From: an uncultured bacterium
Lineage (GTDB): Bacteria > Patescibacteriota > Minisyncoccia > Phycocordibacterales > PALSA-1337
NCBI GenBank assembly: GCA_963851055.1
Contig: CAWKMY010000006.1
Coordinates: 14,663-78,662, forward strand
Direction of reading: 5' to 3'
DNA length: 64,000 bases
Positions 9,610 through 53,169 of the stretch are shown here, in pieces. The translations under genes and the position numbers were made by a program. Position 1 is the first letter of the stretch, and each line of letters starts with the position of its first letter. The notes under the pieces were generated by a model. That model was not told the origin of the DNA and made no database searches. It worked only from the letters and a program-made list of their open reading frames with translations.

Positions 9610-9648
9610 CCAGCATTTAATTGGTTTCGGCATGCTGGAGCCGTTTTT
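9610..9648 (+). repeat. Direct repeat copy 1 (39 bp) carrying a duplicated start region MPKPIKCW of the downstream membrane-protein gene
   Basis: ccagcatttaattggtttcggcatgctggagccgttt, near identical to 10131-10168. On the minus strand it encodes MPKPIKCWKEK-stop. Confidence 0.6.
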
Positions 9649-9767: not shown

Positions 9768-10154
9768 TTAAGACTCACAACTTTTTTCAAACTCTGACAC
9801 TGCCACTACTCCGATTGGCCCGGCAACCAGTGCCCCAACTGCAACAATCCCATCGCCAGTCAAGTTCAATGACGGCCAAACCATCATCGCCTTGACCCAA
9901 GCTACTGGACCGTGCCTTAAGTGGCCAATCGTAGACACTGCGCTTACGGCCCATAATGCCGTACCCATCGCTGTCACCAGCGCCCACACCATAGCCGCAA
10001 GAAACAGCGGCAATGATGTGGAGTCGTTGTCTGTAATGGTCAAATACCATAGCAGAAACGGCAGGATGGCCGGGCCAGCGATTACCGACACCATGTAGAA
10101 CTTTTTCAATAATTTCACATTATCCTTTTCCCAGCATTTAATTGGTTTCGGCAT
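9768..10154 (-). CDS. Hypothetical multi-pass membrane protein
   Basis: 128 aa, hydrophobic segments; start codon region lies inside repeat copy 2. Confidence 0.45.
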   Translation of the reverse strand: MPKPIKCWEKDNVKLLKKFYMVSVIAGPAILPFLLWYLTITDNDSTSLPLFLAAMVWALVTAMGTALWAVSAVSTIGHLRHGPVAWVKAMMVWPSLNLTGDGIVAVGALVAGPIGVVAVSEFEKSCES

Positions 10155-10168
10155 GCTGGAGCCGTTTT
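10131..10168 (+). repeat. Direct repeat copy 2 (39 bp), overlaps start of ORF 9768..10154
   Basis: Same 39-mer as 9610-9648; contains a 7-bp hairpin ccagcat/atgctgg followed by a T-run. Confidence 0.6.
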
Positions 10169-14738: not shown

Positions 14739-14844
14739 TCAATCGGGTTATGGGTGACACCTTAAAACATAACAAGTCACTCAAGATTTCCCCGGCGACC
14801 GACTTAACTGTTGGCCGCCGGTATTCTTTTACCTAATCTAGCTT

Positions 14845-14906
14845 CTTAGGCGTTTCTTTATCAGTTCTTAGGCGTTTTTTGATTTCTTTTTGAGCGTTTC
14901 TTTATC
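14845..14906 (+). repeat. 62-bp modular interspersed repeat, copy 1 (variant), directly upstream of ORF 14928
   Basis: cttaggcgtttctttatcagttcttaggcgttttttgatttctttttgagcgtttctttatc; shares ttaggcg, tttgagcg and tttctttatc modules with copies at 18572, 47861 (rc) and 50555 (rc). Confidence 0.75.
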
Positions 14907-14927: not shown

Positions 14928-15296
14928 ATGGACAAAATCCATTATGAAAAACTACTTGAAAAGAGACGTCAATGGTACAAAACCGTAAAGAAAGTCTACT
15001 GTCCTTGTTTAGGAGTGGATGTATTTTTTAATTCTAAAGGCTTCAGACACATCTTATATGACGGCGAGGGTAAATTGCGTTCCTTGCAAGATCGCATCCG
15101 TAGATTGAACTTATTGCCTCTGGCCATTTCGATGATCGGAAACTCGACGAAAATCCATGAACATAGAACTCAATGGAATATGAACTCCGTTTCTTTCAGA
15201 AAATATCATTCGAATAGAGGAACTTGGATAACGGTCGTCATCAAGATAAATCCTTTGGGTAAAATGAATTTTGTGAGCGTCATCGACCGCAAATAG
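14928..15296 (+). CDS. Hypothetical protein
   Basis: 122 aa ORF starting 22 nt after repeat copy 1; weak terminator-like hairpin with T-run at 15303-15328. Confidence 0.4.
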   Translation: MDKIHYEKLLEKRRQWYKTVKKVYCPCLGVDVFFNSKGFRHILYDGEGKLRSLQDRIRRLNLLPLAISMIGNSTKIHEHRTQWNMNSVSFRKYHSNRGTWITVVIKINPLGKMNFVSVIDRK

Positions 15297-18420: not shown

Positions 18421-18571
18421 GGTTATTTTTGCAAAACAAATGGGATTGGTCAGCTGTTCGGCGCTTTTAAGAGCGGACCCGATGTGCTTCCAATCATTTC
18501 CTCATAAAACTCTTGTTTTCTAAGGTAAGGATGATACTAGCAGATGAAGACTAGAGAGTCAATAACAAAAT

Positions 18572-18633
18572 CTTAGGCGAATTTTGAGCGAAAATTATGC
18601 GTTTTTTGATTTCTTTTTGAGCGTTTCTTTATC
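18572..18633 (+). repeat. 62-bp modular interspersed repeat, copy 2, 11 nt upstream of mazF-like start
   Basis: cttaggcgaattttgagcgaaaattatgcgttttttgatttctttttgagcgtttctttatc. Confidence 0.8.
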
Positions 18634-18644
18634 ACCTCTATGAT

Positions 18645-19085
18645 ATGTTGCTGTGTATGGACGAAATATACATCAAAGACTTCGATAAATGGAATGAATG
18701 CCAAAAGGCTCTTGATAAACAAGAATTCGAGGGATTTTGTCGTGAACGAGAAGTTTGGTGGTGCGCCTTGGGAGTGAATATTGGCTCGGAACAAGACGGT
18801 AAGAATGATTTATTTGAACGACCAGTACTCATTATCAAGAAGATCCGAAAAGATCTATTACGCATCATTCCACTTACAAGTAAAATAGAAAACCACGATG
18901 ACCGTATAACTGCGATCATTGCTGGAGAAAAATCCCAAATACTTCTCTCACAAGCTAAAACTATCAGCAGTAAGAGGTTATTAAGAAAAATAGGTTATGT
19001 ACGAATCCCATTATTCCAAGAGGTAATCATCCGTCTAGTCAAATCCATACTTGATATCCCTTACGAAAGCGAAACCCCGCTATAA
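18645..19085 (+). CDS. MazF/PemK/EndoA-family endoribonuclease toxin homologue (no obvious cognate antitoxin ORF)
   Basis: REVWWCALGVNIGSEQDGKNDLFERPVLIIK and SQILLSQAKTISSKRL closely parallel B. subtilis EndoA/MazF ([41 protein letters not shown]). Confidence 0.7.
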   Translation: MLLCMDEIYIKDFDKWNECQKALDKQEFEGFCREREVWWCALGVNIGSEQDGKNDLFERPVLIIKKIRKDLLRIIPLTSKIENHDDRITAIIAGEKSQILLSQAKTISSKRLLRKIGYVRIPLFQEVIIRLVKSILDIPYESETPL

Positions 19086-43995: not shown

Positions 43996-44032
43996 GATAG
44001 TTAAATGAAAATGGAAAAAGCAAAATGGAAAA

Positions 44033-44455
44033 TTAAGCAACCTTAGCGGCCTTTGGCTTCTTGTTTCCGTATTGGCTGCGACCTTTGCGACGCTTCTCTA
44101 CTCCGGCGCAGTCCAGGACTCCGCGGACGATGGAATAGCGCAAACCTACGTCCTTGACGCGACCTCCACGAAGGAGGACGACGGCGTGTTCCTGTAGATT
44201 ATGACCTTCACCCGGGACATATGCTGTGACTTCGACGCCGTTAGAAAGGCGTACGCGAGCAATCTTGCGGATAGCGGAGTTAGGCTTCTTTGGAGTCTTT
44301 GTCGTGACTTTCACGCATACACCACGCTTGAAAGGCGCAGGGAAAAAGCTCGGACGATTCTCGATCGAGTTGAAGGTGCGGGTGAGAGCGATAGACTTTG
44401 ACTTCCTCTTGAAAGTCTTGCGGCTTCTCTTTGTGAGCTGATTAATTGTTGGCAT
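44033..44455 (-). CDS. rpsL: 30S ribosomal protein S12
   Basis: [13 protein letters not shown] ... [10 protein letters not shown] classic S12. Confidence 0.9.
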
Positions 44456-44503
44456 AGTTTGTTAGTAATTCGTAAACAGTAAACTGTAAACGGAAAGTGT
44501 TGT

Positions 44504-44529
44504 TCTCTGTTTACGGTCTACTGATTACC
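44504..44529 (-). promoter_or_regulatory. Conserved upstream element (25-nt core) of the rpsL-operon promoter region, shared with ssrA
   Basis: ttctctgtttacggtctactgattac vs tttctgtttacggtttactgattac at 871-895, with further flanking similarity (taaacgg, tgttct, ccgtttact). Confidence 0.5.
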
Positions 44530-44739
44530 GTTTACTGCGATTTTTCCGTTTGAATTTTTTCATCATTTTCAGCTCGAGCGAGCTTGAATGATTACTCATA
44601 CGGAACTAGTAATTAAATTGTAGCCCCCTTGGGCAGTGGGGAGACTTTAGCATAGAAGAGATTCTCTGGCAAATCTGAATTGAATCCTCCAGCGCATTCA
44701 AAATTTGCCGATAACTGCGGATAGTTTCCAAACAGCTAT

Positions 44740-45402
44740 TTAATTTGGTAATCTTGGAATAACTACTTTTGCAATATTTTCAGCCTTAGACAGATTCTGA
44801 TCTACTATACCGGGTTCATAAACATATATGATACCTATTGTCTTTCCAATGGCAAAATATAGCACCACCTTATTATTTAGAGACCTCCATGCAGCTTGAT
44901 CACCGATTCCTGATATCTGAGTCAGATATAAGGGGCTCGACTTAGCGTAAGTATTCAAAATAATATTAAAATCCTGGGAATTAGCATTCGCAGAAAGTAT
45001 CTCGAGGCTTGCCGCTAGGGTTTTATCTTGAACTGGCGTTGAACTATTGACAGATCCGTATCCATAAACACATACTTGATCGGTATTCTGATATAAATAC
45101 AAGGATTTTTCACTAAGAATCGACTTTGCATCTGCAAGAGTAAAGTAATCGCAAGTATTGTTACTCCAAGTCTTAGGCGCGTTAGTTGTCGGTGAATTGA
45201 CAGCTTCTGTTGGTGGTTGTGACTGGGAGTTAGTATTTATTTGAACTGGAGAATTAACTGGCACCTGTTCTTTTTGTGCAGAGTTATTTCTTAGATAAAA
45301 ATAACCTCCGATACTTAGAATAATAATAGTAAGAACTACTATAGCCCATATCGCAGCTGAGCCTTTTTGTGAGTTTTTCATGATAAATACATTATACAGC
45401 AA
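44740..45402 (-). CDS. Hypothetical membrane-anchored protein
   Basis: 220 aa, N-terminal TM then Ser/Thr/Asn-rich region. Confidence 0.4.
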   Translation of the reverse strand: MLYNVFIMKNSQKGSAAIWAIVVLTIIILSIGGYFYLRNNSAQKEQVPVNSPVQINTNSQSQPPTEAVNSPTTNAPKTWSNNTCDYFTLADAKSILSEKSLYLYQNTDQVCVYGYGSVNSSTPVQDKTLAASLEILSANANSQDFNIILNTYAKSSPLYLTQISGIGDQAAWRSLNNKVVLYFAIGKTIGIIYVYEPGIVDQNLSKAENIAKVVIPRLPN

Positions 45403-46045
45403 CGAATATATAAAAGTAAATATTCACATCGCCACCCCAGTAAACAATTGAAACACCCACGGAATTATCGGCGCCACTACTTGCCAGAGAAAAAAAATGA
45501 CAATTAGAGCAAAAATCGGTGAATTCCTTTCCATCGTCATTCTTACTCGGCCATATTGATTGGGTAAAACGAAAAGAGCAATTTGGAACCATCAAGCGGC
45601 GGCAGATGGAATGAAATTAAAGACAGCTAAGATAATATTGATAATAACTATATAAGAAATGATCGTAATAAAAGGCGCCAACGAAGTGGCAGAAGCAGCA
45701 TCAGTTATTCCGCCAGCGACAAAGCGCAAATAGTCCCAAAAACCAAAGCAATCAGAAGATTCGAAGCTGGCCCAGCAGCCGCGATGAGGAATTCACCTTG
45801 GCGTTTATTCTTGAGATTATATGGATTGTAAGGAACAGGCTTGGCCCAACCAAACGTGGAGCCTGAGTAAGCGAGGTGATAAGAGGCACTATTATAGAAC
45901 CGAGCGGATCTATATGTTTGAGCGGATTCAAAGTCAGCCTGCCAGCCAATCGCGCCGTAGGATCACCCAGCGGTCAGCCATATAGCCATGGGAAAGCTCG
46001 TGAAGGATGACGGATATTATGAGAATGACTATAGATAATATAGTA
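45400..46045 (-). pseudogene. Site-2 protease / peptidase M50 family gene disrupted by multiple frameshifts
   Basis: Minus-strand reading gives MLTILSIVILIISVILHELSHGYMADRWV (HExxH) then stop. After shifts come ...[16 protein letters not shown]... and [35 protein letters not shown]. Confidence 0.5.
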
Positions 46046-46099
46046 AGCATGATTGTTGACCTCCAAACCAATCAATGATAGCATACGATTCTCACTCTT

Positions 46100-46345
46100 A
46101 TGGCAAAAGTATGCGACATAACAAAGGTAGGCTCGGTCGTCGGCGGCCGCTACTCCAATAGGACTCGCGCAACGCAGTTCAATCCCTGCGGCAATATTCG
46201 TCGTTACCCAAATCTCCAGAAGAAAAAGATCTATGTGCCAGAACTGAAGAAGTCATTCTCCTTGACCGTCTCCGCTCGCGGCCTCCGCACCATCCAGAAG
46301 AAAGGACCATTCCGAGCTCTCAAGGATGCGGGGATAATAAAATAA
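46100..46345 (+). CDS. rpmB: 50S ribosomal protein L28
   Basis: MAKVCDITKVGSVVGGRYSNRTRATQFNPCGNIRR pattern of L28. Confidence 0.75.
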   Translation: MAKVCDITKVGSVVGGRYSNRTRATQFNPCGNIRRYPNLQKKKIYVPELKKSFSLTVSARGLRTIQKKGPFRALKDAGIIK

Positions 46346-46466
46346 GTTTGGTTTGACTTTAATCATAAAACTGCTTACACTTATAGCAGTTAACTCTGAC
46401 GCCAGGAAATCGGCTTAGCTGGATATCTCCCGAATAAATGAGGGAGTAGCAAATGAGGGGATACCA

Positions 46467-46934
46467 TTATGGTGCCGTCCCTCCAGAGATATCATACATT
46501 TTCTCATAGGTTCTCGGATCTATGATAAATGCGGAAACGACCTGATTCTCTGAACCAGGCGTTTTTGTTATCTCAAGAACTACTCCATAATTTCTACTAA
46601 TTTTCCGTGTTAGGATAAAACTATTATCTCGTTTTAGAAAATTGTTGACTATCTTTTCGGGCATATTTAGAACCACTGGAATTATACTTATAACTTCATC
46701 GGCCTTATTTCCTCTACTGTCGATGATATGCTTGAGAGCTCTTCTGGAAATATATACCCCACGGGATTTAGACCCGATAACTTGTGCCGTGCAGTATGAG
46801 ATGAATGCCACACTAAATATTCGGAGTGGATCGGGAATGGCCTCACCAACACTGATGTTCTTAAGCTCCTCAATTATTTCATCCGGTATACTCATGTATT
46901 TATGTTCATTGAGAAATACCGATGTCAATTCCAT
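46467..46934 (-). CDS. Hypothetical protein, paralogue A of a two-member family with RR(A/T)LKH motif
   Basis: Aligns with ORF 48733..49176: YISRRALKHIIDSRG...IIPVVLNMPEKIV...VVLEI vs FFTRRTLKHLAEKG...IIPNILEYPDVIF...IIVIEF. Confidence 0.4.
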   Translation of the reverse strand: MELTSVFLNEHKYMSIPDEIIEELKNISVGEAIPDPLRIFSVAFISYCTAQVIGSKSRGVYISRRALKHIIDSRGNKADEVISIIPVVLNMPEKIVNNFLKRDNSFILTRKISRNYGVVLEITKTPGSENQVVSAFIIDPRTYEKMYDISGGTAP

Positions 46935-47838
46935 CTGACTCTATTTTCACAGTCCCTTTCTCTTTTACATTGAAACGTTTGTCGTCGAGTATGAAATAAA
47001 GTGGATCAACTTTTTTGGCCACAGACTTTTTGGTCCCGCTAGTTATAGATTGCGAATAAACCAAATATTCAGGACGCATTTTATTCATTAGCTCAGCTGA
47101 TAAAGAGCCGGCCAATGCGCTATTCGGCATAACCAAAACATTTGCGCGCAATGAATTTGAACCAAATTGATCAGATGAAGATGCCGCCGAAACCAAAAAC
47201 TTTTGCACTTTGGTCGTTGCATTTCCGAGTAACATAACTGAAGTCTGGCCGTATGAAATTTTCATTATAATCTCCGGCGCGCTTGCATTTGAATACGCAA
47301 ATAAAGATGGCGGTGCTGGAAAAAGAACACCCGCTTTTACCGGCTCTCCCCCGATTCTCTGTCCAAAATCGAGCACATCCCCAGCCGAAACCTCCTCCAT
47401 AGGCACCTTTAATTGCTTAACCGTATCGAGAAAAGTCTGATATATCTGACCTGTCGAACTAGCTAGACCCAAAGCCTGTAATGAAACGCCCGGCACAACG
47501 ACTTTATCGACAGAGTATCGTTCCAAAACATCGATAAGCCCCGAGACATCCTTGTCGTCAGCGTCAGTGGCAATAACTACGTCGATCCGACGCGAATAGA
47601 AAGGCAGAATGTCCGTCAATTCACGGATGACTTCGGAATTCGCTCCGCCATTTATCAAAATCCTTTTATCATCGGGTGTGCGGACGAAGACTGATGAACC
47701 GCTTTTCAGGTTGAAGACGTATACCTCAAGGATGGGCAGACGATGTTCTTCTCGCCACGCATAACCGGCAATGCCGCAGGCTAGAGTCGCGGCTGTGGCA
47801 CCGATCAAGAACGGTTTGGACATGATTTTGACTGTCAT
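46906..47838 (-). CDS. Membrane-anchored MBL-fold protein resembling the ComEC C-terminal metallo-beta-lactamase domain
   Basis: Start at MTVKIMSK; the listed ORF start at 47877 lies inside the repeat. TM anchor, then LEVYVFNLKSGSSVFVRTPDDKRILINGG typical of the ComEC MBL domain. Confidence 0.5.
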   Translation of the reverse strand: MTVKIMSKPFLIGATAATLACGIAGYAWREEHRLPILEVYVFNLKSGSSVFVRTPDDKRILINGGANSEVIRELTDILPFYSRRIDVVIATDADDKDVSGLIDVLERYSVDKVVVPGVSLQALGLASSTGQIYQTFLDTVKQLKVPMEEVSAGDVLDFGQRIGGEPVKAGVLFPAPPSLFAYSNASAPEIIMKISYGQTSVMLLGNATTKVQKFLVSAASSSDQFGSNSLRANVLVMPNSALAGSLSAELMNKMRPEYLVYSQSITSGTKKSVAKKVDPLYFILDDKRFNVKEKGTVKIESDGIDIGISQ

Positions 47839-47860
47839 GCACCCCAGTCTACAGACCCGA

Positions 47861-47922
47861 GATAAAGAAACGCTCAAAAAGAAATCAAAAAACGCCTAAT
47901 TTTCGCTCAAAATTCGCCTAAG
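47861..47922 (-). repeat. 62-bp modular interspersed repeat, copy 3, 22 nt upstream of the MBL gene start
   Basis: rc reads cttaggcgaattttgagcgaaaattaggcgttttttgatttctttttgagcgtttctttatc; shares the extra tcgg(g)tctg tail with copy 1. Confidence 0.8.
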
Positions 47923-47997
47923 AAAGGCCAAAAATGTTAAAATTACTTGGTAAAATCTAAATACTGACACATTAATACCAATAACGAGAATTATTTT

Positions 47998-48582
47998 ATG
48001 AAAACATTTACCGCAAAATCTTTTAATATTCCGGTTCTAAAGGGCATTTCGGCGAAGACCATAGCTGAACACATAAAGCTGTACGAAGGATACGTCAAGC
48101 ATTTGAATCTCGTACATGAGATCGTGGAAAACCAGGATAATCCTGAATACGCACGTAGAGAAACATACCGCAGACAAGCATTTGAATTCGACGGCATGCG
48201 TAACCATGAATATTACTTTGGAAGCCTTGAAGGTGGTCCGCATGAGATTTCCAAAGATTCAGCCCTATACAAGAAAATAATCGAGTGGACCGGCTCTTTC
48301 GAACTATTCATGAAAATATTTAGCAACCTCGCTACTACAAGAGGTGTTGGATGGGCAATGCTAGGCTACGATAAACAAGATGATACGTTGATCCAATATT
48401 GGGTTGACGAACAGCACCTAGGACATTTGGTAGGAGTCAGCCCAATAATTGCCCTCGACATGTGGGAACACTCGTATGTCGCCGACTATCAGCCGTCAGG
48501 CAAGAAGCAATATGTCGAAGACTTTTTCGCTAATCTAAATTGGGAAGTGGTGGAGGAGAATTTTAAGGCGGCGAGGAAGTAA
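47998..48582 (+). CDS. sodA: Fe/Mn superoxide dismutase family protein
   Basis: C-terminal LDMWEHSYVADYQ...NLNWEVVEENF matches the Fe/Mn-SOD D.WEHAYY signature; N-terminal region divergent. Confidence 0.75.
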   Translation: MKTFTAKSFNIPVLKGISAKTIAEHIKLYEGYVKHLNLVHEIVENQDNPEYARRETYRRQAFEFDGMRNHEYYFGSLEGGPHEISKDSALYKKIIEWTGSFELFMKIFSNLATTRGVGWAMLGYDKQDDTLIQYWVDEQHLGHLVGVSPIIALDMWEHSYVADYQPSGKKQYVEDFFANLNWEVVEENFKAARK

Positions 48583-48732
48583 AGACTACTACTCATTGAC
48601 ATCACCCCTTTATTTGTCCTACACTTATGCCAGTGAAATACCTTGAGAGTTTCGAGATTCTCTAAGAGCGGAAAATTCGGGTCGGCCGCCAGCGTTCGCT
48701 TTACCGCGAATATGCAGTATGGAGGGATCGCC

Positions 48733-49176
48733 TCACGAAAGTGAGCCGCCCGTCCTCCAGAGAATCTCAAAGTTCTTGAGGTATTTTTCGTCCGTGACAA
48801 AAGATGTGACCAGAATCACGCCTCTCTCAAGAAATTCAATTACGATTATATGCGGCTCTCTTTTCTTGCCCTGATTGAAAAATTTTGCAGAAAGTAACCG
48901 AGTCTTCTTTCCCCGGAAAATAACATCTGGATATTCGAGGATATTTGGAATAATTCCGAGCAATCTTTTACCCTCTACTCCCTTTTCGGCAAGATGTTTT
49001 AGTGTACGTCGAGTAAAAAATGCCTGTAACTTTCCTCTAGAAAAAATCTGCATAATTACAGGGTGTACAGAAAAACCAGTCTGGATTAATTCATCAGGCC
49101 TATCAATCAAAATCCCTTTCGGAATTTTTTGGAATTCGTAAAAAATTGACCGTAAAGGTGTGGTGTGCTTATTCAT
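48733..49176 (-). CDS. Hypothetical protein, paralogue B (RRTLKH motif)
   Basis: See paralogue A; overlaps stop of comEC N-terminal gene by 4 nt. Confidence 0.4.
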   Translation of the reverse strand: MNKHTTPLRSIFYEFQKIPKGILIDRPDELIQTGFSVHPVIMQIFSRGKLQAFFTRRTLKHLAEKGVEGKRLLGIIPNILEYPDVIFRGKKTRLLSAKFFNQGKKREPHIIVIEFLERGVILVTSFVTDEKYLKNFEILWRTGGSLS

Positions 49177-50540
49177 ATCATTTTTTCAAGATTCTTTGGC
49201 CGACTTCTCCTCCTCTTCACCAGCATAAACCCGACGAGAAATACCCCATAAAACCCCACCACCCACCAGCCGGAAAATTGCGGCAGGTAGACGGCGGCGA
49301 ATGGCAATCTGGCGAAATGCTCGACTATAAAGAGCTCGTAGGCCAGAAGTAGATGCGCTCCCCAGCCGAATATGTGCGAGACCGGCGACGAAATGAAACC
49401 TGAGGCACCCGTTAGGAAGACGGCCAACATCGTCAGCGGAATAAAAGGCAAAACCAAAATATTCACTACTACGCCGACTATAGAAAGCTGGCCCATCATA
49501 TATAGGATGAATGGCGAGACGAATATCTGGGTCGAGGTCGTGGCAGCAACTATGCCGCGCATGCCGAATGTCTCCGGTATGAAGGTTAGGCGCTTTTCGA
49601 TAGGGCTGGCTAGAAGGATCAACCCGAGTGTGGCCAAAAATGAAAGTTGAAATGATGGGTCATGCAGGAGAATCATCGGATTTTCTATGAGCATCAGACA
49701 TGCGGCGAAAGACAGGGCACGGACGACATTGTAGTCACGACGGGTAAGGTCGGCAGACAGGGCAACTCCCGCCATGAAGCACGAGCGCACAACCGTCGCT
49801 CCTCCGCCGACCAAAATGCCGAAAAGAGCGATACCTATTCCGCCGACCACTATTCCCCAAACTCGAGGAAGCCTCGATAGCAATTTACGTAATGCATAGG
49901 CTACGATGGTTATATTGAAACCGGACAAAACGACTATATGTATAAGACCGACGATACGAAAATCATTGAGTAAATCTTTACCCAGAGCCGCTTTCTCCCC
50001 TACCACCAGCCCTGCCGCCAATGCAGAGTGGGGCTCGCCTAGAGAGCTATTCAGGTTATTGACAAAGCCGCGTTTGAGCTTGAGCAAGAGCGAAGTTATC
50101 GACCATCCATTATCAGGATTGGTCAAGACGACCGCCGAGCTTTTCATTTCATAGAAAATATCGTCCTTGGCTAGATAATCTCTGTAATCGAAAGACCTGC
50201 CCGTATCGCTTTGAAAATTAAATGGTGCAGACAATTTTCCCGTAAATGAAACCGTGTCTCCATAATGGAATCGGGGATACAATTTAGTTTTCATTTGGAT
50301 TAGAAGGCCGTCCGGGCATTTATTTTCGCCAGCTGACAATCGACTGGTCGAAACAACCAGAACCTGACCCGTATTAGTGAATGACGGATCTTCGGTGATC
50401 GTCCCAACTCCTTCTATCTGTTGTTTGAGACATGGACCAATGTCTGGCGACACTATGAAAAATGATTGGCCGACGCGAAAAATCGCGGCCGTTATGAATA
50501 TGCTCCAGAAAATGAAAACCCCCCTGTTCATGGAGAGCAT
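49173..50540 (-). CDS. comEC: ComEC/Rec2-like competence membrane channel, N-terminal (DUF4131 + competence) portion only
   Basis: 455 aa polytopic membrane protein with typical ComEC channel region; lacks C-terminal MBL domain, which is encoded separately at 46906..47838. Confidence 0.65.
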   Translation of the reverse strand: MLSMNRGVFIFWSIFITAAIFRVGQSFFIVSPDIGPCLKQQIEGVGTITEDPSFTNTGQVLVVSTSRLSAGENKCPDGLLIQMKTKLYPRFHYGDTVSFTGKLSAPFNFQSDTGRSFDYRDYLAKDDIFYEMKSSAVVLTNPDNGWSITSLLLKLKRGFVNNLNSSLGEPHSALAAGLVVGEKAALGKDLLNDFRIVGLIHIVVLSGFNITIVAYALRKLLSRLPRVWGIVVGGIGIALFGILVGGGATVVRSCFMAGVALSADLTRRDYNVVRALSFAACLMLIENPMILLHDPSFQLSFLATLGLILLASPIEKRLTFIPETFGMRGIVAATTSTQIFVSPFILYMMGQLSIVGVVVNILVLPFIPLTMLAVFLTGASGFISSPVSHIFGWGAHLLLAYELFIVEHFARLPFAAVYLPQFSGWWVVGFYGVFLVGFMLVKRRRSRPKNLEKMI

Positions 50541-50554
50541 TTTACTGGGACAGC

Positions 50555-50616
50555 GATAAAGAAACGCTCAAAAAGTAATCAAAAAACGCCTAATTTTCGC
50601 TCAAAATTCGCCTAAG
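50555..50616 (-). repeat. 62-bp modular interspersed repeat, copy 4, 14 nt upstream of comEC start
   Basis: rc reads cttaggcgaattttgagcgaaaattaggcgttttttgattactttttgagcgtttctttatc. Confidence 0.8.
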
Positions 50617-50638
50617 AAACTCAAGGTTAAACCTTGAG
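50612..50638 (-). terminator. Intrinsic terminator after rnhA (palindrome ctcaagg..ccttgag then tttctt on minus strand)
   Basis: Perfect 7-bp stem 50620-50626/50632-50638 immediately after rnhA stop. Confidence 0.45.
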
Positions 50639-50641
50639 GCG

Positions 50642-51397
50642 CTAAAAAGCTCCGAATTCGTCTACTATTTCCTGCTCATTCTCGATGCTTATCGATTTTT
50701 TGTATTTTGCGCCTTTTGTGCCTTTTACCCGCTTCTCACATTCGGCCCATGAATGATGGGTTTCGATAATTCCGCCAACCATGCTCACATAAGAATATGC
50801 TTTGGCATTCGAGTGCGAGGAACTAGACTTCTTTTTGGCCGCACTCATCTCATCATGTGAAATATCCAGAATATCCGGCAAGTCATAAGCACCAAGCGGA
50901 CCTTTATAAAGATTTATTTTTCTTCCATCAGCGAAAGCTGTGGCTATATGGTCGCAACGCTCATTGCCGAGAATACCTACGTGACCACCGATGTATTTCC
51001 ACTCGATCTTGCCGCCTGACAATTCTATGAGACCGGCGGCCTCGTCGAGCCTCTCCCAAAGATCGGCATTCAAGACGTCTTTTTTAGCCTTTGTTTTCCA
51101 GCCATTCTTCTTCCAAGCATGGATCCACTTGGTGATCCCATTTATGACGTAGCGGGAATCCGTGTGGACAATGATCCCTCCACCAACATTGGAATGCAAA
51201 TGATCGATGGCTTTTAAACCTTCTAAAGCGGCTTTAAGCTCCATACGATTATTCGTAGTCTCTCTTTCTCCGCCGCCGAGTTCGATAACTTCTGTTTTTA
51301 TTCCTGGTACAACAATGACCGCGCCCCAACCTCCCGGGCCTGGGTTATTGCGGGATGAGCCGTCGGTGAAAATGGTGATTTTGGAATTATCTTTCAT
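50642..51397 (-). CDS. rnhA: Ribonuclease HI with C-terminal extension
   Basis: ITIFTDGSSRNNPGPGGWGAV ... HTDSRYVINGITKWIHAWKKNGW RNase H fold motifs. Confidence 0.8.
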   Translation of the reverse strand: MKDNSKITIFTDGSSRNNPGPGGWGAVIVVPGIKTEVIELGGGERETTNNRMELKAALEGLKAIDHLHSNVGGGIIVHTDSRYVINGITKWIHAWKKNGWKTKAKKDVLNADLWERLDEAAGLIELSGGKIEWKYIGGHVGILGNERCDHIATAFADGRKINLYKGPLGAYDLPDILDISHDEMSAAKKKSSSSHSNAKAYSYVSMVGGIIETHHSWAECEKRVKGTKGAKYKKSISIENEQEIVDEFGAF

Positions 51398-51417
51398 TGG
51401 GTTTTTATTTTAGCGTC

Positions 51418-53169
51418 TTAAGATATTACCACATCCACCACTCGGAGTCGCAATTCCGCCCTTCCGCGGAACATAGATTTTTCAATAGAAGCGATCAGAT
51501 CTAATGGCTTATTCGCCTCGACCTTTTTGGCCCATTCATTCTCGACACCGAAGAATGAGATGGCCGGAATTTTAACACCGTTTGATTTTTTGAAAGTTAA
51601 TTCTATGTGTTCGCCCCCCTTCCCAAATAGCTTGACCAGGATCGGGGAGACTTTCCTGAAAAGGAATACCGGCTTTGGATTGCCGAAGCCGAATGGTGCA
51701 AGTTGGCCGATATCTTTTTGTAAATTCCAATCGACATCATCCATCGACAGTTCGGCATCTATGAAATCTTCATCGGCCTGTGGAACATTCTTCAAATTTC
51801 CTGCTGCGGTGTTCAAATGTCCTTCCAAAAAATGTACTGACTCGCTGGCCACTGCAAACCCACCAGAATATCTATGGCCGCCGAACTGGGTGAGCACGCC
51901 TGCTGGAACGGCGCGCATTAACTCTACGACATTAGATAAGCCTTCGGACCTACACGAGCCCTTGAGAAGATTATCTCCATCGCGGCCCCATAGGAAAACT
52001 GGGCGACTGAATTCACCTGCACAAGTATTGGCCACTAGACCTAGAAGAGATGGTCGCCATTCCGGATTGCCGAGCACAATTACCGACGGAAATGTGGCGA
52101 CATCGTGGCCATGGCGACCATGCAGAGTCTTTTTCACTTCTTTGACCAATGAAGCGACGACTCCTTTGCGCTCATTGTTGATACTATCTAGATGATCGGC
52201 AAATTTGCACGCGTCTTCATCAGTTGTCGCCGCCAAAAGGCTGAAGGCGTCCATGGGCAGACCCATCCTCGAAGCGGCATTGATGCGCGGCGTGACCATA
52301 AAGGCGATATCGTCCTCTGTTAAATGTTGCTTGGCGATCTTTAATTTCTCAAGGAGCCTGACCAGGCCTTTGCGCTGGCTTTTGCGCAAGACTTCCATGC
52401 CGTAATATGCAAAGACTCGATTTTCGCCGATGAGCGGAACCATATCAGACAGTGTGGCTATGCCGACCATGTCCAGTAACCATTTCTCATGGCCTTCCTT
52501 GAATTCATTTTCACCTTTGAATATTGAAGTGTCTTTTGTCTCTTTAATTTTCTTCAAAATTGCTTGGATCAATTTGAAAGCTACACCCGAGCCGCAGATA
52601 TTTTTGTCAGGATAATGACAATCGGCCTGTTTGTGGTCGACAATAGCGAATGCCGGCGGCAATTTTGCCGGCGGCTCATGGTGATCGGTTATGATAACGT
52701 CCATTTTCAATTCATTGGCGCGCTCAACCGGCTTTACATCCGATATGCCACAGTCGACAGTGACGATGAATTTTACTTTTTCGCTCGCCAATTGCTCGAT
52801 AGCATCAATGTTCAAGCCAAATCCTTCATCGTGACGATGTGGAATGTATACGGAAAAATTCTTGAAGCCGATCCTGCCGAAAAAATCATTCCATATAACC
52901 GCTCCTGGTATACCGTCAGCATCATAGTCGGAGTATATGGCGATGCGTTCATCTCTTTTAATGGCTTGGATGATTCTCTCCGCTGATTTTTCCGCGTCTT
53001 TCAATAAAAATGGATCGTGAGTGTCGCGGATATAGTCAGGTGAGAGGAATCTTTTAGCGGCCATCGCGTCTTTGAGCCCTCTATGATGCATGAGATGCGA
53101 AAGCGGTGACGAAAAGCCGGCAAGATTGGATTGCTCTTCATTTGAAAGAGGTTTACGGAGAGAATACAT
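51418..53169 (-). CDS. recJ: Single-stranded-DNA-specific exonuclease RecJ
   Basis: DHH family motifs (YSDYDADGIPGAVIW, ITDHHEPP), DHHA1 GGGH-like region, 583 aa. Confidence 0.85.
   Translation of the reverse strand: MYSLRKPLSNEEQSNLAGFSSPLSHLMHHRGLKDAMAAKRFLSPDYIRDTHDPFLLKDAEKSAERIIQAIKRDERIAIYSDYDADGIPGAVIWNDFFGRIGFKNFSVYIPHRHDEGFGLNIDAIEQLASEKVKFIVTVDCGISDVKPVERANELKMDVIITDHHEPPAKLPPAFAIVDHKQADCHYPDKNICGSGVAFKLIQAILKKIKETKDTSIFKGENEFKEGHEKWLLDMVGIATLSDMVPLIGENRVFAYYGMEVLRKSQRKGLVRLLEKLKIAKQHLTEDDIAFMVTPRINAASRMGLPMDAFSLLAATTDEDACKFADHLDSINNERKGVVASLVKEVKKTLHGRHGHDVATFPSVIVLGNPEWRPSLLGLVANTCAGEFSRPVFLWGRDGDNLLKGSCRSEGLSNVVELMRAVPAGVLTQFGGHRYSGGFAVASESVHFLEGHLNTAAGNLKNVPQADEDFIDAELSMDDVDWNLQKDIGQLAPFGFGNPKPVFLFRKVSPILVKLFGKGGEHIELTFKKSNGVKIPAISFFGVENEWAKKVEANKPLDLIASIEKSMFRGRAELRLRVVDVVIS

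Follow-up and report, generated by a model that had tools for sequence, protein, structure and literature searches.

We describe here the comEC locus of an uncultured bacterium of the Patescibacteriota, which occupies the minus strand, from about 50.6 to 46.4 kb, of a 64,000-nt stretch of contig CAWKMY010000006.1 (hereafter, the window). This is the normal comEC locus of a Patescibacterium of the Paceibacteria/Taylorbacteria type, and in it comEC is stably split: the gene for the channel part of the protein (ComEC-N) and that for the C-terminal metallo-beta-lactamase (MBL) domain are 1335 nt apart, with a superoxide dismutase (SOD)-like gene on the opposite strand between them (Table 1). Both halves are preceded by copies of one repeat array with the layout of a promoter, and both are followed by a small gene of the PBECR family, named here B when it follows ComEC-N and A when it follows the MBL gene. 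The best explanation of the whole, which we hold with moderate confidence, is that of a split and co-regulated ComEC with a non-catalytic MBL domain, to which PBECR ribonucleases (RNases) were added that would couple uptake to RNA cleavage. The original prediction, made from the sequence of the window, had already reported two ComEC halves about 1.3 kb apart with a sodA-like gene in between, and all these elements were recovered where it had placed them, or close by.

The channel half was identified by its profile matches. The 455-amino acid open reading frame (ORF) carries the OB-fold domain of ComEC (PF13567, DUF4131; 44.9 bits versus a gathering score of 31.6, E 1.3e-11), and its residues 178-443 matched the Competence domain (PF03772, E 1.1e-48). 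The NCBIfam model TIGR00360 scored 69.4 bits, above its cut-off of 36.5, and the full-length equivalog TIGR00361 was not reached, with 93 bits versus a cut-off of 190 and a match confined to model positions 45-414. The polypeptide stops after the channel and contains no MBL domain, so that it does not show the DCL architecture. On these matches, the ORF is the N-terminal two-thirds of ComEC. Its orthologues start with MNRRVF or MRKGVF, at the residue encoded by the second ATG; therefore, the probable start of the window gene is the ATG at 50531 (MNRGVF...), in a leaderless arrangement. At the other end, the protein finishes in a cytoplasmic basic tail, KRRRSRPKNLEKMI.

The separate MBL protein of 310 amino acids was detected by none of the Pfam and NCBIfam models, Lactamase_B included. 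When phmmer was run against the PDB sequences, it matched only ComEC: residues 535-746 of the 801 in 30bt (E 2.1e-7), followed by the isolated ComEC MBL domain 9ic4 (E 1.6e-6). An AlphaFold model built with 45 homologues (predicted local distance difference test, pLDDT, 90; predicted TM score, pTM, 0.87) showed an N-terminal helix at residues 7-31, which would be a transmembrane anchor, and then the MBL sandwich. Foldseek comparison of this model with the PDB again gave the ComEC MBL domain 9ic4 as the best match (E 1.8e-17, TM 0.66/0.76), and the next one, Pce/CbpE, was seven orders of magnitude weaker (7e-10). Judged by both sequence and predicted fold, the gene is the C-terminal MBL domain of ComEC, and the resemblance proposed in the original prediction stands. 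A match of this protein to 'MazE_antitoxin' (E 0.099) and the partial MBL matches from PADLOC were set aside as weak or generic. Since ComEC-N ends in a basic tail and the MBL protein opens with its own membrane helix, the break in comEC would fall within a cytoplasmic loop, and the canonical topology, with the C-terminal domain outside the cell membrane, appears to be preserved.

The alignment of the MBL protein to the ComEC sequences of the PDB, residue by residue, revealed extensive changes at the metal ligands. Motif I, GQGD in ComEC, reads KSGS, i.e., the aspartate is replaced by serine; motif II reads TDADDKD where ComEC has THPDADH; the bridging aspartate of motif IV is an asparagine; and in motif V HHGS has become NSAL, with asparagine in the place of histidine. 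Among 121 MBL homologues, the consensus of motif II was T-N-T-(D/E)-G-K-N, with lysine at the position of the second aspartate in 94, and the histidine of motif V was retained in 71. The set of metal-ligand motifs I-V that characterizes the ComEC nuclease domain (GQGD; HxDxDH; bridging D; HHGS) is not retained. Both aspartates of motif II are required for Mn2+ binding, nuclease activity, and transformation, and for the substituted C-terminal domain of S. pneumoniae ComEC the possibility of a guiding role without catalysis has been discussed (Silale et al. 2021, PMC8579336). The substitutions point to a pseudo-enzyme or to a strongly altered enzyme.

The split is not a peculiarity of the window. 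The MBL-like protein has 204 homologues, all of about 300 amino acids, all stand-alone and all with Patescibacteria, Paceibacterota, or Minisyncoccia as source names. We then compared gene order in related loci, which carry L-numbers here, with numbers such as L006/7 or L008/9/16 grouped as one genome; those inspected were L001, L003/4, L006/7, L008/9/16, L010/11, L012/13, L015, L018, L019, L075, L146, L147, and L148. The order ComEC-N, SOD on the opposite strand, and MBL was kept in every related locus that spans the three genes. In L001, L003, L006, L008, L010, and L012, as well as in L018, L019, L146, and L147, the conserved order extends from RecJ and RNase H through ComEC-N, SOD (opposite strand), MBL, and L28 (opposite strand) to M50, and the short contigs L075 and L148 show the core order of ComEC-N, SOD, and MBL. 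The original prediction had asked whether relatives have an intact single comEC; a contiguous gene was found in none of the related loci examined, and the split is fixed in the clade. The conservation of this order in about 15 related Patescibacteria loci indicates that the split is ancestral and not a local event.

Next, we analyzed the repeat that precedes both halves. It had been described as a 62-bp element; its presence at both places held, and its length is 65 nt. Copy 1 consists of six phased 11-nt units, TTTCTTAGGCG AATTTTGAGCG AAAATTAGGCG TTTTTTGATTA CTTTTTGAGCG TTTCTTTATC, and in gene direction the units common to both copies are the first three and last two of these, with TTTTTTGATT(A/T) in fourth place; the 65-nt array can alternatively be read as three 22-nt units. 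The geometry of the cassette is constant: the array is followed after 9-10 nt by a -10 hexamer, and the hexamer after 6-8 nt by the ATG. The 39-nt core of the array, with up to 3 mismatches, occurred 4 times in the window versus 0 in 100 shuffles, and the strict pattern array-N8-11-TAnnnT-N5-9-ATG 4 times in the 64 kb versus 0.22 in shuffles, with all four copies co-oriented with the downstream ATG. No -35 hexamer was found at the arrays by direct reading, and no sigma-70 -35/-10 pair was called there. Rfam gave no match at E up to 1 across 44000-52000. Tandem Repeats Finder (TRF) called no array in the window at its score threshold; in L008 it reported, for both sites, a period of 11 (6.7 copies) and one of 22.

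An array with the same geometry stands ahead of both ComEC-N and the MBL gene in every relative examined (at least 12), including L146-L148, where both halves have it although the small genes are absent. Collectively, these data indicate that the '62-bp repeat' is a promoter-like cassette and not a duplication scar. The mRNAs are likely to be leaderless, and the start of the ComEC-N orthologues at the second ATG is consistent with this. Phased 11/22-bp direct repeats that abut the -10 element and replace the -35 are a hallmark of OmpR/PhoB-type activated promoters. The layout found in the window and in at least 12 relatives, with 11-bp half-sites, no -35, and an end about 10 bp before the -10, is of this kind, and we therefore propose that a regulator of the OmpR/PhoB type controls a small regulon; by analogy, such an activator would drive the array promoters and keep the two ComEC halves co-expressed. 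In several genomes the twin copies are alike over 40-85 nt (local-alignment score 64 in the window, 73 in L008, and 53 in L018); the between-genome mean is 22. Since promoters of orthologous genes in close relatives score as high (up to 71), concerted evolution of the twin arrays is only partly supported. In L148, the same GC-rich palindrome, ACTGAGGCGCAGCCTCAGTA, precedes both twin promoters, upstream of ComEC-N (90) and of MBL (2281), so that the duplicated segment extends there beyond the array itself.

The two small genes could be placed in the PBECR family. A scored 32.7 bits with PBECR3, above the Pfam gathering score of 30, and B was a weak match to PBECR2. The homology between them that had been proposed was borne out: BLASTP gave 24% identity (E 1e-6), and the profile-profile comparison of the two orthologue families gave a probability of 96.9% (E 1.5e-10). 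The joint A+B profile matched PBECR2-bearing proteins with E values of 1e-25 to 1e-34. Likewise, the RRxLKH motif noted earlier is real, with K60 and H61 (B numbering) invariant in 29 of the 29 family members aligned and the glutamate invariant too; in the last core strand, the B family has an invariant T124 and the A family an S134 conserved to at least 90%. The PBECR active site consists of a histidine in the first, N-terminal helix, plus a threonine or serine that is C-terminal, as in colicin D (PMC5512222), and a Lys-His pair is present in colicin D, PBECR3, and CdiA-CT EC869 (bioRxiv 10.64898/2026.08.28.747851). Both families, A and B, have the Lys-His pair in the pre-alpha helix and the C-terminal Thr/Ser. 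RNases of the BECR type do not depend on metal and require the 2'-OH (PMC5512222), and in the literature found the endoribonuclease activity of PBECR proteins is a prediction for all members (PMC5512222; bioRxiv 10.64898/2026.08.28.747851). The earlier speculation about a small nuclease or toxin fold is thus supported by the PBECR assignment.

The AlphaFold model of B (pLDDT 86, pTM 0.80) has a strand, the pre-alpha helix with K60 and H61, an alpha helix, four strands, and a helix. Its best matches in BFVD were a phage minor capsid (MuF-like) protein, PolyVal ADP-ribosyltransferase proteins, 'Nuclease' giants, and LPD/LPD3 proteins, all with E values between 2.6e-4 and 1e-3. Direct reading revealed neither a signal peptide nor a membrane segment in A or B, and PADLOC and PHROGs had no match for either. 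A profile search of the whole library retrieved 316 relatives of A and B, many of them inside PBECR2 proteins of 700-2400 amino acids. One such protein, of 1246 amino acids and encoded in a Patescibacteria metagenome-assembled genome (L020 3340-7080), combines a DnaJ-like domain with a PBECR module 35% identical to B and 33.6% identical to A, in both cases above the 24% that A and B share with each other; the module also has the N-terminal F-x-E-L-K-x-IP and the C-terminal LLWRTG motifs. This is probably a polyvalent protein of a CPR (candidate phyla radiation) phage or mobile element, from which the domesticated genes could plausibly have come. In a neighbor-joining tree of 150 family domains, which is crude and has no support values, A and B were apart from each other, each among solo and giant proteins. 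These comparisons favor two captures from mobile-element polyvalent proteins, or else a very old divergence. We infer that A and B are PBECR-family RNases, i.e., colicin-D-like BECR proteins, of two non-sister lineages.

The position of these genes was mapped with tblastn in all loci. B-type genes were found only directly after ComEC-N, in 8 genomes (window, L006/7, L008/9/16, L010/11, L015, L017, L018, and L019). Remnants of B, in decay, lie in L023 and L024/25. The A-type genes were confined to the position directly after the MBL gene, in 5 genomes (window, L006/7, L012/13, L014, and L015), and a truncated remnant in L001/2 was also visible by eye. Both genes are together in the window, L006/7, and L015, and both are absent from L003/4, L146, L147, and L148. 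The orthologues numbered 10 for A and 20 for B. In the window, the two had been said to overlap the stops of the genes upstream; this holds for B, which shares 4 nt (ATGA) with ComEC-N, and not for A. The first ATG of A, at 46934, would overlap the MBL gene by 29 nt, and the orthologues begin at the equivalent of the ATG at 46895 (MSIPDEII...), 10 nt beyond the MBL stop.

Fusions gave a further link between B and the channel. In L017 (615 amino acids) and L018 (641 amino acids), one ORF encodes ComEC-N joined to B, the linker not being the same in the two, and Pfam recognized DUF4131, Competence, and PBECR2 in the L017 protein. L015 is likewise open across the ComEC-N/B junction, and P0143 and P0153 contain the last ComEC helix plus B. 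These fusions speak for an action of B at the channel protein's cytoplasmic end. A Competence domain is absent from all the large representative proteins that carry the module, and the ComEC fusions were found only by reading the loci. The proposal of a two-component ComEC, with each half coupled to a small partner, therefore fits the comparative data, down to the fusion of B with ComEC-N in some genomes. The slot after ComEC-N can also hold other genes: in two close relatives, L012 (2052-2492) and L075 (3297-3737), it is occupied in each case by an ORF of 146 amino acids that is unrelated to PBECR-B and has no Pfam match; the one in L075 starts with MAILKDENLK. The slot seems to be a hotspot for accessory genes.

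The repeat search of the window also retrieved array copies 3 and 4, which the original prediction had left unlinked to the comEC locus. Both sit inside the ribosomal-protein region (secY/L15/S5/L18/L6/S8...L5). The ORF behind copy 3, of 122 amino acids, matched LPD3 below the gathering score (E 2e-4), and the one behind copy 4 matched PemK_toxin with 42 bits and a PHROG annotated as 'MazF-like growth inhibitor'; the latter has an N-terminal extension of about 30 amino acids, and no antitoxin is visible next to it. We considered the LPD3-like ORF as a relative of A and B. Profile comparison gave a probability of 0.2%, i.e., no significant relation, and a hidden Markov model (HMM) of A+B matched only A and B among the six-frame ORFs of the window; a third paralogue is therefore not claimed. 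The LPD3 and PBECR3 models overlap on one representative, P0171, and LPD3-named phage proteins were among the weak fold matches of the B model.

A scan of metagenomes with the proximal 17-mer returned mostly chance matches inside unrelated genes, and about 12 loci with true arrays. Behind these arrays we found ComEC-N in L075 and L089, homologues of the LPD3-like ORF in L047, L090, and L069, and MazF-like genes in L052 and L033. A four-unit array with a -10 hexamer lies about 100 nt upstream of recA on a CPR-like contig (L108 3590-4873), pointing to recA as a member of the array regulon in some lineages. In L127 (216-2769), an OmpR-family response-regulator gene is followed directly by the array and then by a gene for a multi-pass histidine kinase. 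This pair is a candidate for regulating the array genes, and its kinase would itself be expressed from an array; no orthologue of either protein was found within the 64-kb window.

Taking these results together, the mechanism that we propose is as follows. An OmpR/PhoB-type activator would switch on leaderless transcripts of both ComEC halves at the same time. The MBL ectodomain would act as a non-catalytic guide or docking module, while PBECR-B would be a cytoplasmic accessory module, a metal-independent endoribonuclease at the inner mouth of the channel, and PBECR-A another RNase of this sort, produced from the mRNA of the MBL half. The genes for A, B, and the MazF-like and LPD3-like proteins, with recA, may then form a regulator-controlled, competence-like program that links DNA uptake to RNA cleavage, and the cleavage could serve as a checkpoint on entering material or as growth arrest.

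Several observations weigh against this proposal. On its own, B scored 20.7 bits with PBECR2, below the gathering score of 27.1, and the Foldseek search of its model against the PDB gave nothing significant. The PBECR genes were missing in the five relatives that were sampled without bias, via the MBL protein (L001, with the A remnant only, L003, L146, L147, and L148), and this absence indicates that they are dispensable for ComEC function. Genes overlapping by 4 nt can fuse by a one-base indel, and fusion alone is no proof of a shared function. A is predicted to be cytoplasmic and the MBL domain to be outside, which makes a direct complex of the two unlikely; with the partners on opposite sides of the membrane, co-expression is a likelier link than contact. 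No immunity or antitoxin gene is evident at the locus, which would be odd for an active RNase: there is no conserved gene downstream of A or B, PADLOC had no match, and nothing answering to a type II antitoxin was recognized. In addition, the M50 gene next to the locus is frameshifted in the window, raising a concern about assembly quality or gene decay.

The main rival explanation is that the PBECR genes are selfish or mobile-element toxin cargo that came to lie at the 3' ends of two genes with a strong inducible promoter, with no role in ComEC and with fusions that are accidents of overlapping frames, and we consider it possible, if on the unlikely side. It would account for the patchy presence and the decay of these genes (A in L001/L002, B in L023 and L024/25, and neither in L003 and L146-L148), for their nearest relatives being domains of giant polyvalent-type proteins, and for the use of the same promoter by other solitary toxin-like genes, the MazF-like and LPD3-like ones. 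Such cargo is harder to reconcile with the strict pairing observed across genomes whose ComEC-N is 59-75% identical to that of the window, among which there were no swaps. Moreover, the A and B orthologues are 42-58% identical to those of the window, versus 42-75% for MBL, and this similar divergence fits vertical descent. The catalytic residues are kept in all members, the fused ones included, and at least three in-frame fusions with different linkers have been maintained.

A more daring version of the proposed mechanism, which we offer as a doubtful speculation, would make ComEC an import port with a built-in, phage-derived endoribonuclease. With the MBL domain disabled, PBECR-B at the cytoplasmic exit would cleave single-stranded RNA that comes in by, or along with, the pilus/ComEC route, either for RNA scavenging, in organisms unable to make nucleotides, or as a first line of control on RNA or DNA phages that use the type IV pilus; the module might be turned on by the two-component regulator together with recA and the MazF-type and LPD3-type RNases.

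The PBECR proteins could, alternatively, replace the lost MBL nuclease and cut or trim incoming DNA at the channel. The loss of the MBL ligands is family-wide and B is fused to the channel protein, as this idea would have it; how the non-transforming strand is handled with no active C-terminal domain is an open question in the literature, and S. pneumoniae, whose C-terminal domain is substituted, uses the separate nuclease EndA (PMC8579336). We find this alternative quite improbable, since a requirement for the 2'-OH by metal-independent BECR RNases (PMC5512222) does not suit a DNA substrate. Besides, signal peptides and transmembrane segments are lacking in A and B, the fused B comes after the cytoplasmic basic tail, so that the membrane separates it from the outer strand that it would have to degrade, and most relatives with the same degenerate MBL domain have no PBECR gene.

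The original prediction had also raised the possibility of a local duplication of a unit made of repeat, gene, and small paralogue, and the two repeats, identical at 64 of 65 positions, and the two homologous small ORFs in the same relative positions do give that impression. Yet ComEC-N and MBL have unrelated folds and correspond to parts that follow one another in canonical ComEC, N-terminal and C-terminal, the tree does not group A and B as sisters and each is closer to the L020 domain than to the other, and the repeat precedes unrelated genes, as well as both halves in genomes that have neither A nor B. With halves that are not paralogues, a repeat that is promoter-like, and small genes that are not sister lineages, a duplicated unit has become very improbable. 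Finally, an assembly artefact or a recently broken comEC pseudogene, an idea to which the frameshift in the neighboring M50 gene might lend itself, is rejected, because the same split with the antisense SOD is present in about 15 independent assemblies from different studies and both halves are intact ORFs, each with its own promoter.

Table 1. Coordinates of the features of the split comEC locus and of the two further promoter arrays in the window.
Feature	Position	Strand	Remarks
Terminator-like hairpin CTCAAGG-TTTAA-CCTTGAG with T-run	50620-50638	-	Between RNase H stop and ComEC-N promoter array
Promoter array copy 1, 65 nt	50555-50619	-	5' of ComEC-N
-10-like hexamer TAAAAT	50539-50544	-	10 nt past array, 7 nt ahead of ATG 50531; direct reading
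ComEC-N, OB-fold (DUF4131) and Competence channel	49173-50531 (mechanical ORF from 50540, 455 aa)	-	
PBECR-B, 147 aa, predicted cytoplasmic BECR-fold RNase-like protein	48733-49176	-	4-nt overlap (ATGA) with ComEC-N stop
Fe/Mn superoxide dismutase-like gene	47998-48582	+	Sod_Fe_C 1.5e-20 (Pfam)
Promoter array copy 2, 65 nt	47861-47925	-	64/65 identical to copy 1
-10-like hexamer TAGACT	47846-47851	-	9 nt past array, 7 nt ahead of ATG 47838; direct reading
Stand-alone ComEC C-terminal-like MBL protein, 310 aa	46906-47838	-	
PBECR-A, predicted BECR-fold RNase-like protein	46467-46895 (142 aa) or from ATG 46934 (155 aa)	-	
Promoter array copy 3	14844-14906	+	Then TACAGT, 6 nt, ATG 14928 (LPD3-like ORF 14928-15296)
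Promoter array copy 4	18571-18633	+	Then TATGTT, 7 nt, ATG 18657 (MazF/PemK-like ORF 18657-19085)

Some observations concern the neighboring genes and the rest of the window. The hairpin upstream of the first array sets ComEC-N apart from the RecJ and RNase H genes that precede it. The RNase HI gene (50642-51397, minus strand) encodes its hybrid-binding 'Cauli_VI' motif at the C-terminus (residues 215-234), while this motif is usually N-terminal, and in L001 the RNase HI was called as two ORFs of 226 and 46 amino acids. The M50 gene, site-2 protease-like and with the HELSHG motif (45427-46002, minus strand), is broken across three frames: tblastn pieces were obtained in frames -2, -1, -3, and -2. 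It is intact in all relatives, and in the window it is either a pseudogene or the result of assembly indel errors. A perfect 38-nt direct repeat, CCAGCATTTAATTGGTTTCGGCATGCTGGAGCCGTTTT, is present at 9610-9647 and 10131-10168, at a distance of 521 nt, where the GC content of the window is highest. Between 33944 and 35527, several repeat families of 50-101 nt that are 74-85% identical are spaced by exactly 963 nt, which indicates the tandem duplication of a segment about 1 kb long; it is probably a domain repeated within a large protein.

When compared with known systems, the parts of this locus are of known kinds: ComEC modules, PBECR, MazF, and a promoter layout of the OmpR type. Canonical ComEC (DUF4131-Competence-Lactamase_B, e.g., from B. 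subtilis and Moorella; 30bt and 9ic4) has the same three modules in the same N-to-C order, and its MBL domain is outside the membrane, as predicted here. Unlike in canonical ComEC, the C-terminal domain has its own gene, transmembrane anchor, and promoter, with an antisense SOD in between; most of the metal ligands in motifs I, II, IV, and V are substituted, and the Lactamase_B Pfam model is blind to the domain. ComEC proteins of a 'DC' profile and CPR ComEC without MBL fusion have been reported (Pimentel & Zhang 2018, PMC6299819; Meheust et al. 2019, PMC6744442), and ComEC-N is a protein of the DC type. In contrast to those reports, the C-terminal domain is encoded separately here, with conserved synteny and apparent co-regulation, an arrangement that we did not find described in PMC6299819 or PMC6744442. 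The MBL-like domain of S. pneumoniae ComEC also has Asn/Glu-type substitutions in motif II and an asparagine in motif IV, and may be kept as a non-catalytic guide (PMC8579336). The degeneration in the Patescibacteria protein is more extreme, with the lysine in motif II described above, and no EndA-like exported nuclease is encoded in the locus.

The PBECR domains of phages and conjugative elements (Iyer et al. 2017, PMC5512222; PF18810, PF18812) have the same residues and the same module of about 140 amino acids in giant proteins, and those fused to MuF or portal proteins are attached to a DNA-translocating machine, as B is to ComEC. Here, by contrast, the genes are chromosomal, host-encoded, and inherited with a core locus, and not in a virion or type IV secretion system context. 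The domains listed as co-occurring with Competence are Lactamase_B_2, Lactamase_B_3, Abhydrolase_5, Abhydrolase_6, and SLBB, and PBECR is not among them (PMC6299819); the PBECR-ComEC combination was not found in the ComEC or PBECR literature searched. Pho-box and other OmpR-PhoB promoters share with the arrays the 11-bp half-site, the 22-bp box, the spacing of about 10 bp to the -10, and the lack of a -35, and an OmpR-family regulator gene adjoins one array, that of L127, with the kinase gene downstream. The arrays differ in that their half-site, TYTTNANC, bears no relation to CTGTCAT, that the half-sites number up to six or seven, and that the transcripts are apparently leaderless. In type II toxin-antitoxin systems such as MazEF and RelBE, small RNase-fold toxins are translationally coupled to an upstream gene, and here a MazF-like gene shares the array promoter. 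The upstream genes, however, are those of ComEC-N (455 amino acids) and the MBL protein (310 amino acids), and there is no small antitoxin.

Judging by the literature that could be searched, a separate, putatively co-regulated and pseudo-enzymatic MBL half of ComEC in a CPR clade is new, and so are the recurrent coupling and fusion of PBECR to the ComEC channel and the candidate regulon with twin promoters. ComEC is the universal DNA-uptake channel and is among the few proteins thought to bring nucleic acids into the uncultivated Patescibacteria. Surveys have described CPR ComEC without the MBL domain, whereas at least one large clade retains the domain in a protein of its own that is apparently co-regulated and catalytically dead. 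A phage-type RNase module appears to have been recruited repeatedly to this channel, up to gene fusion. The twin promoters, with a candidate regulon, a recognizable operator, probably leaderless transcripts, and a candidate regulator family, may offer a rare and testable handle on how transcription is regulated in the CPR.

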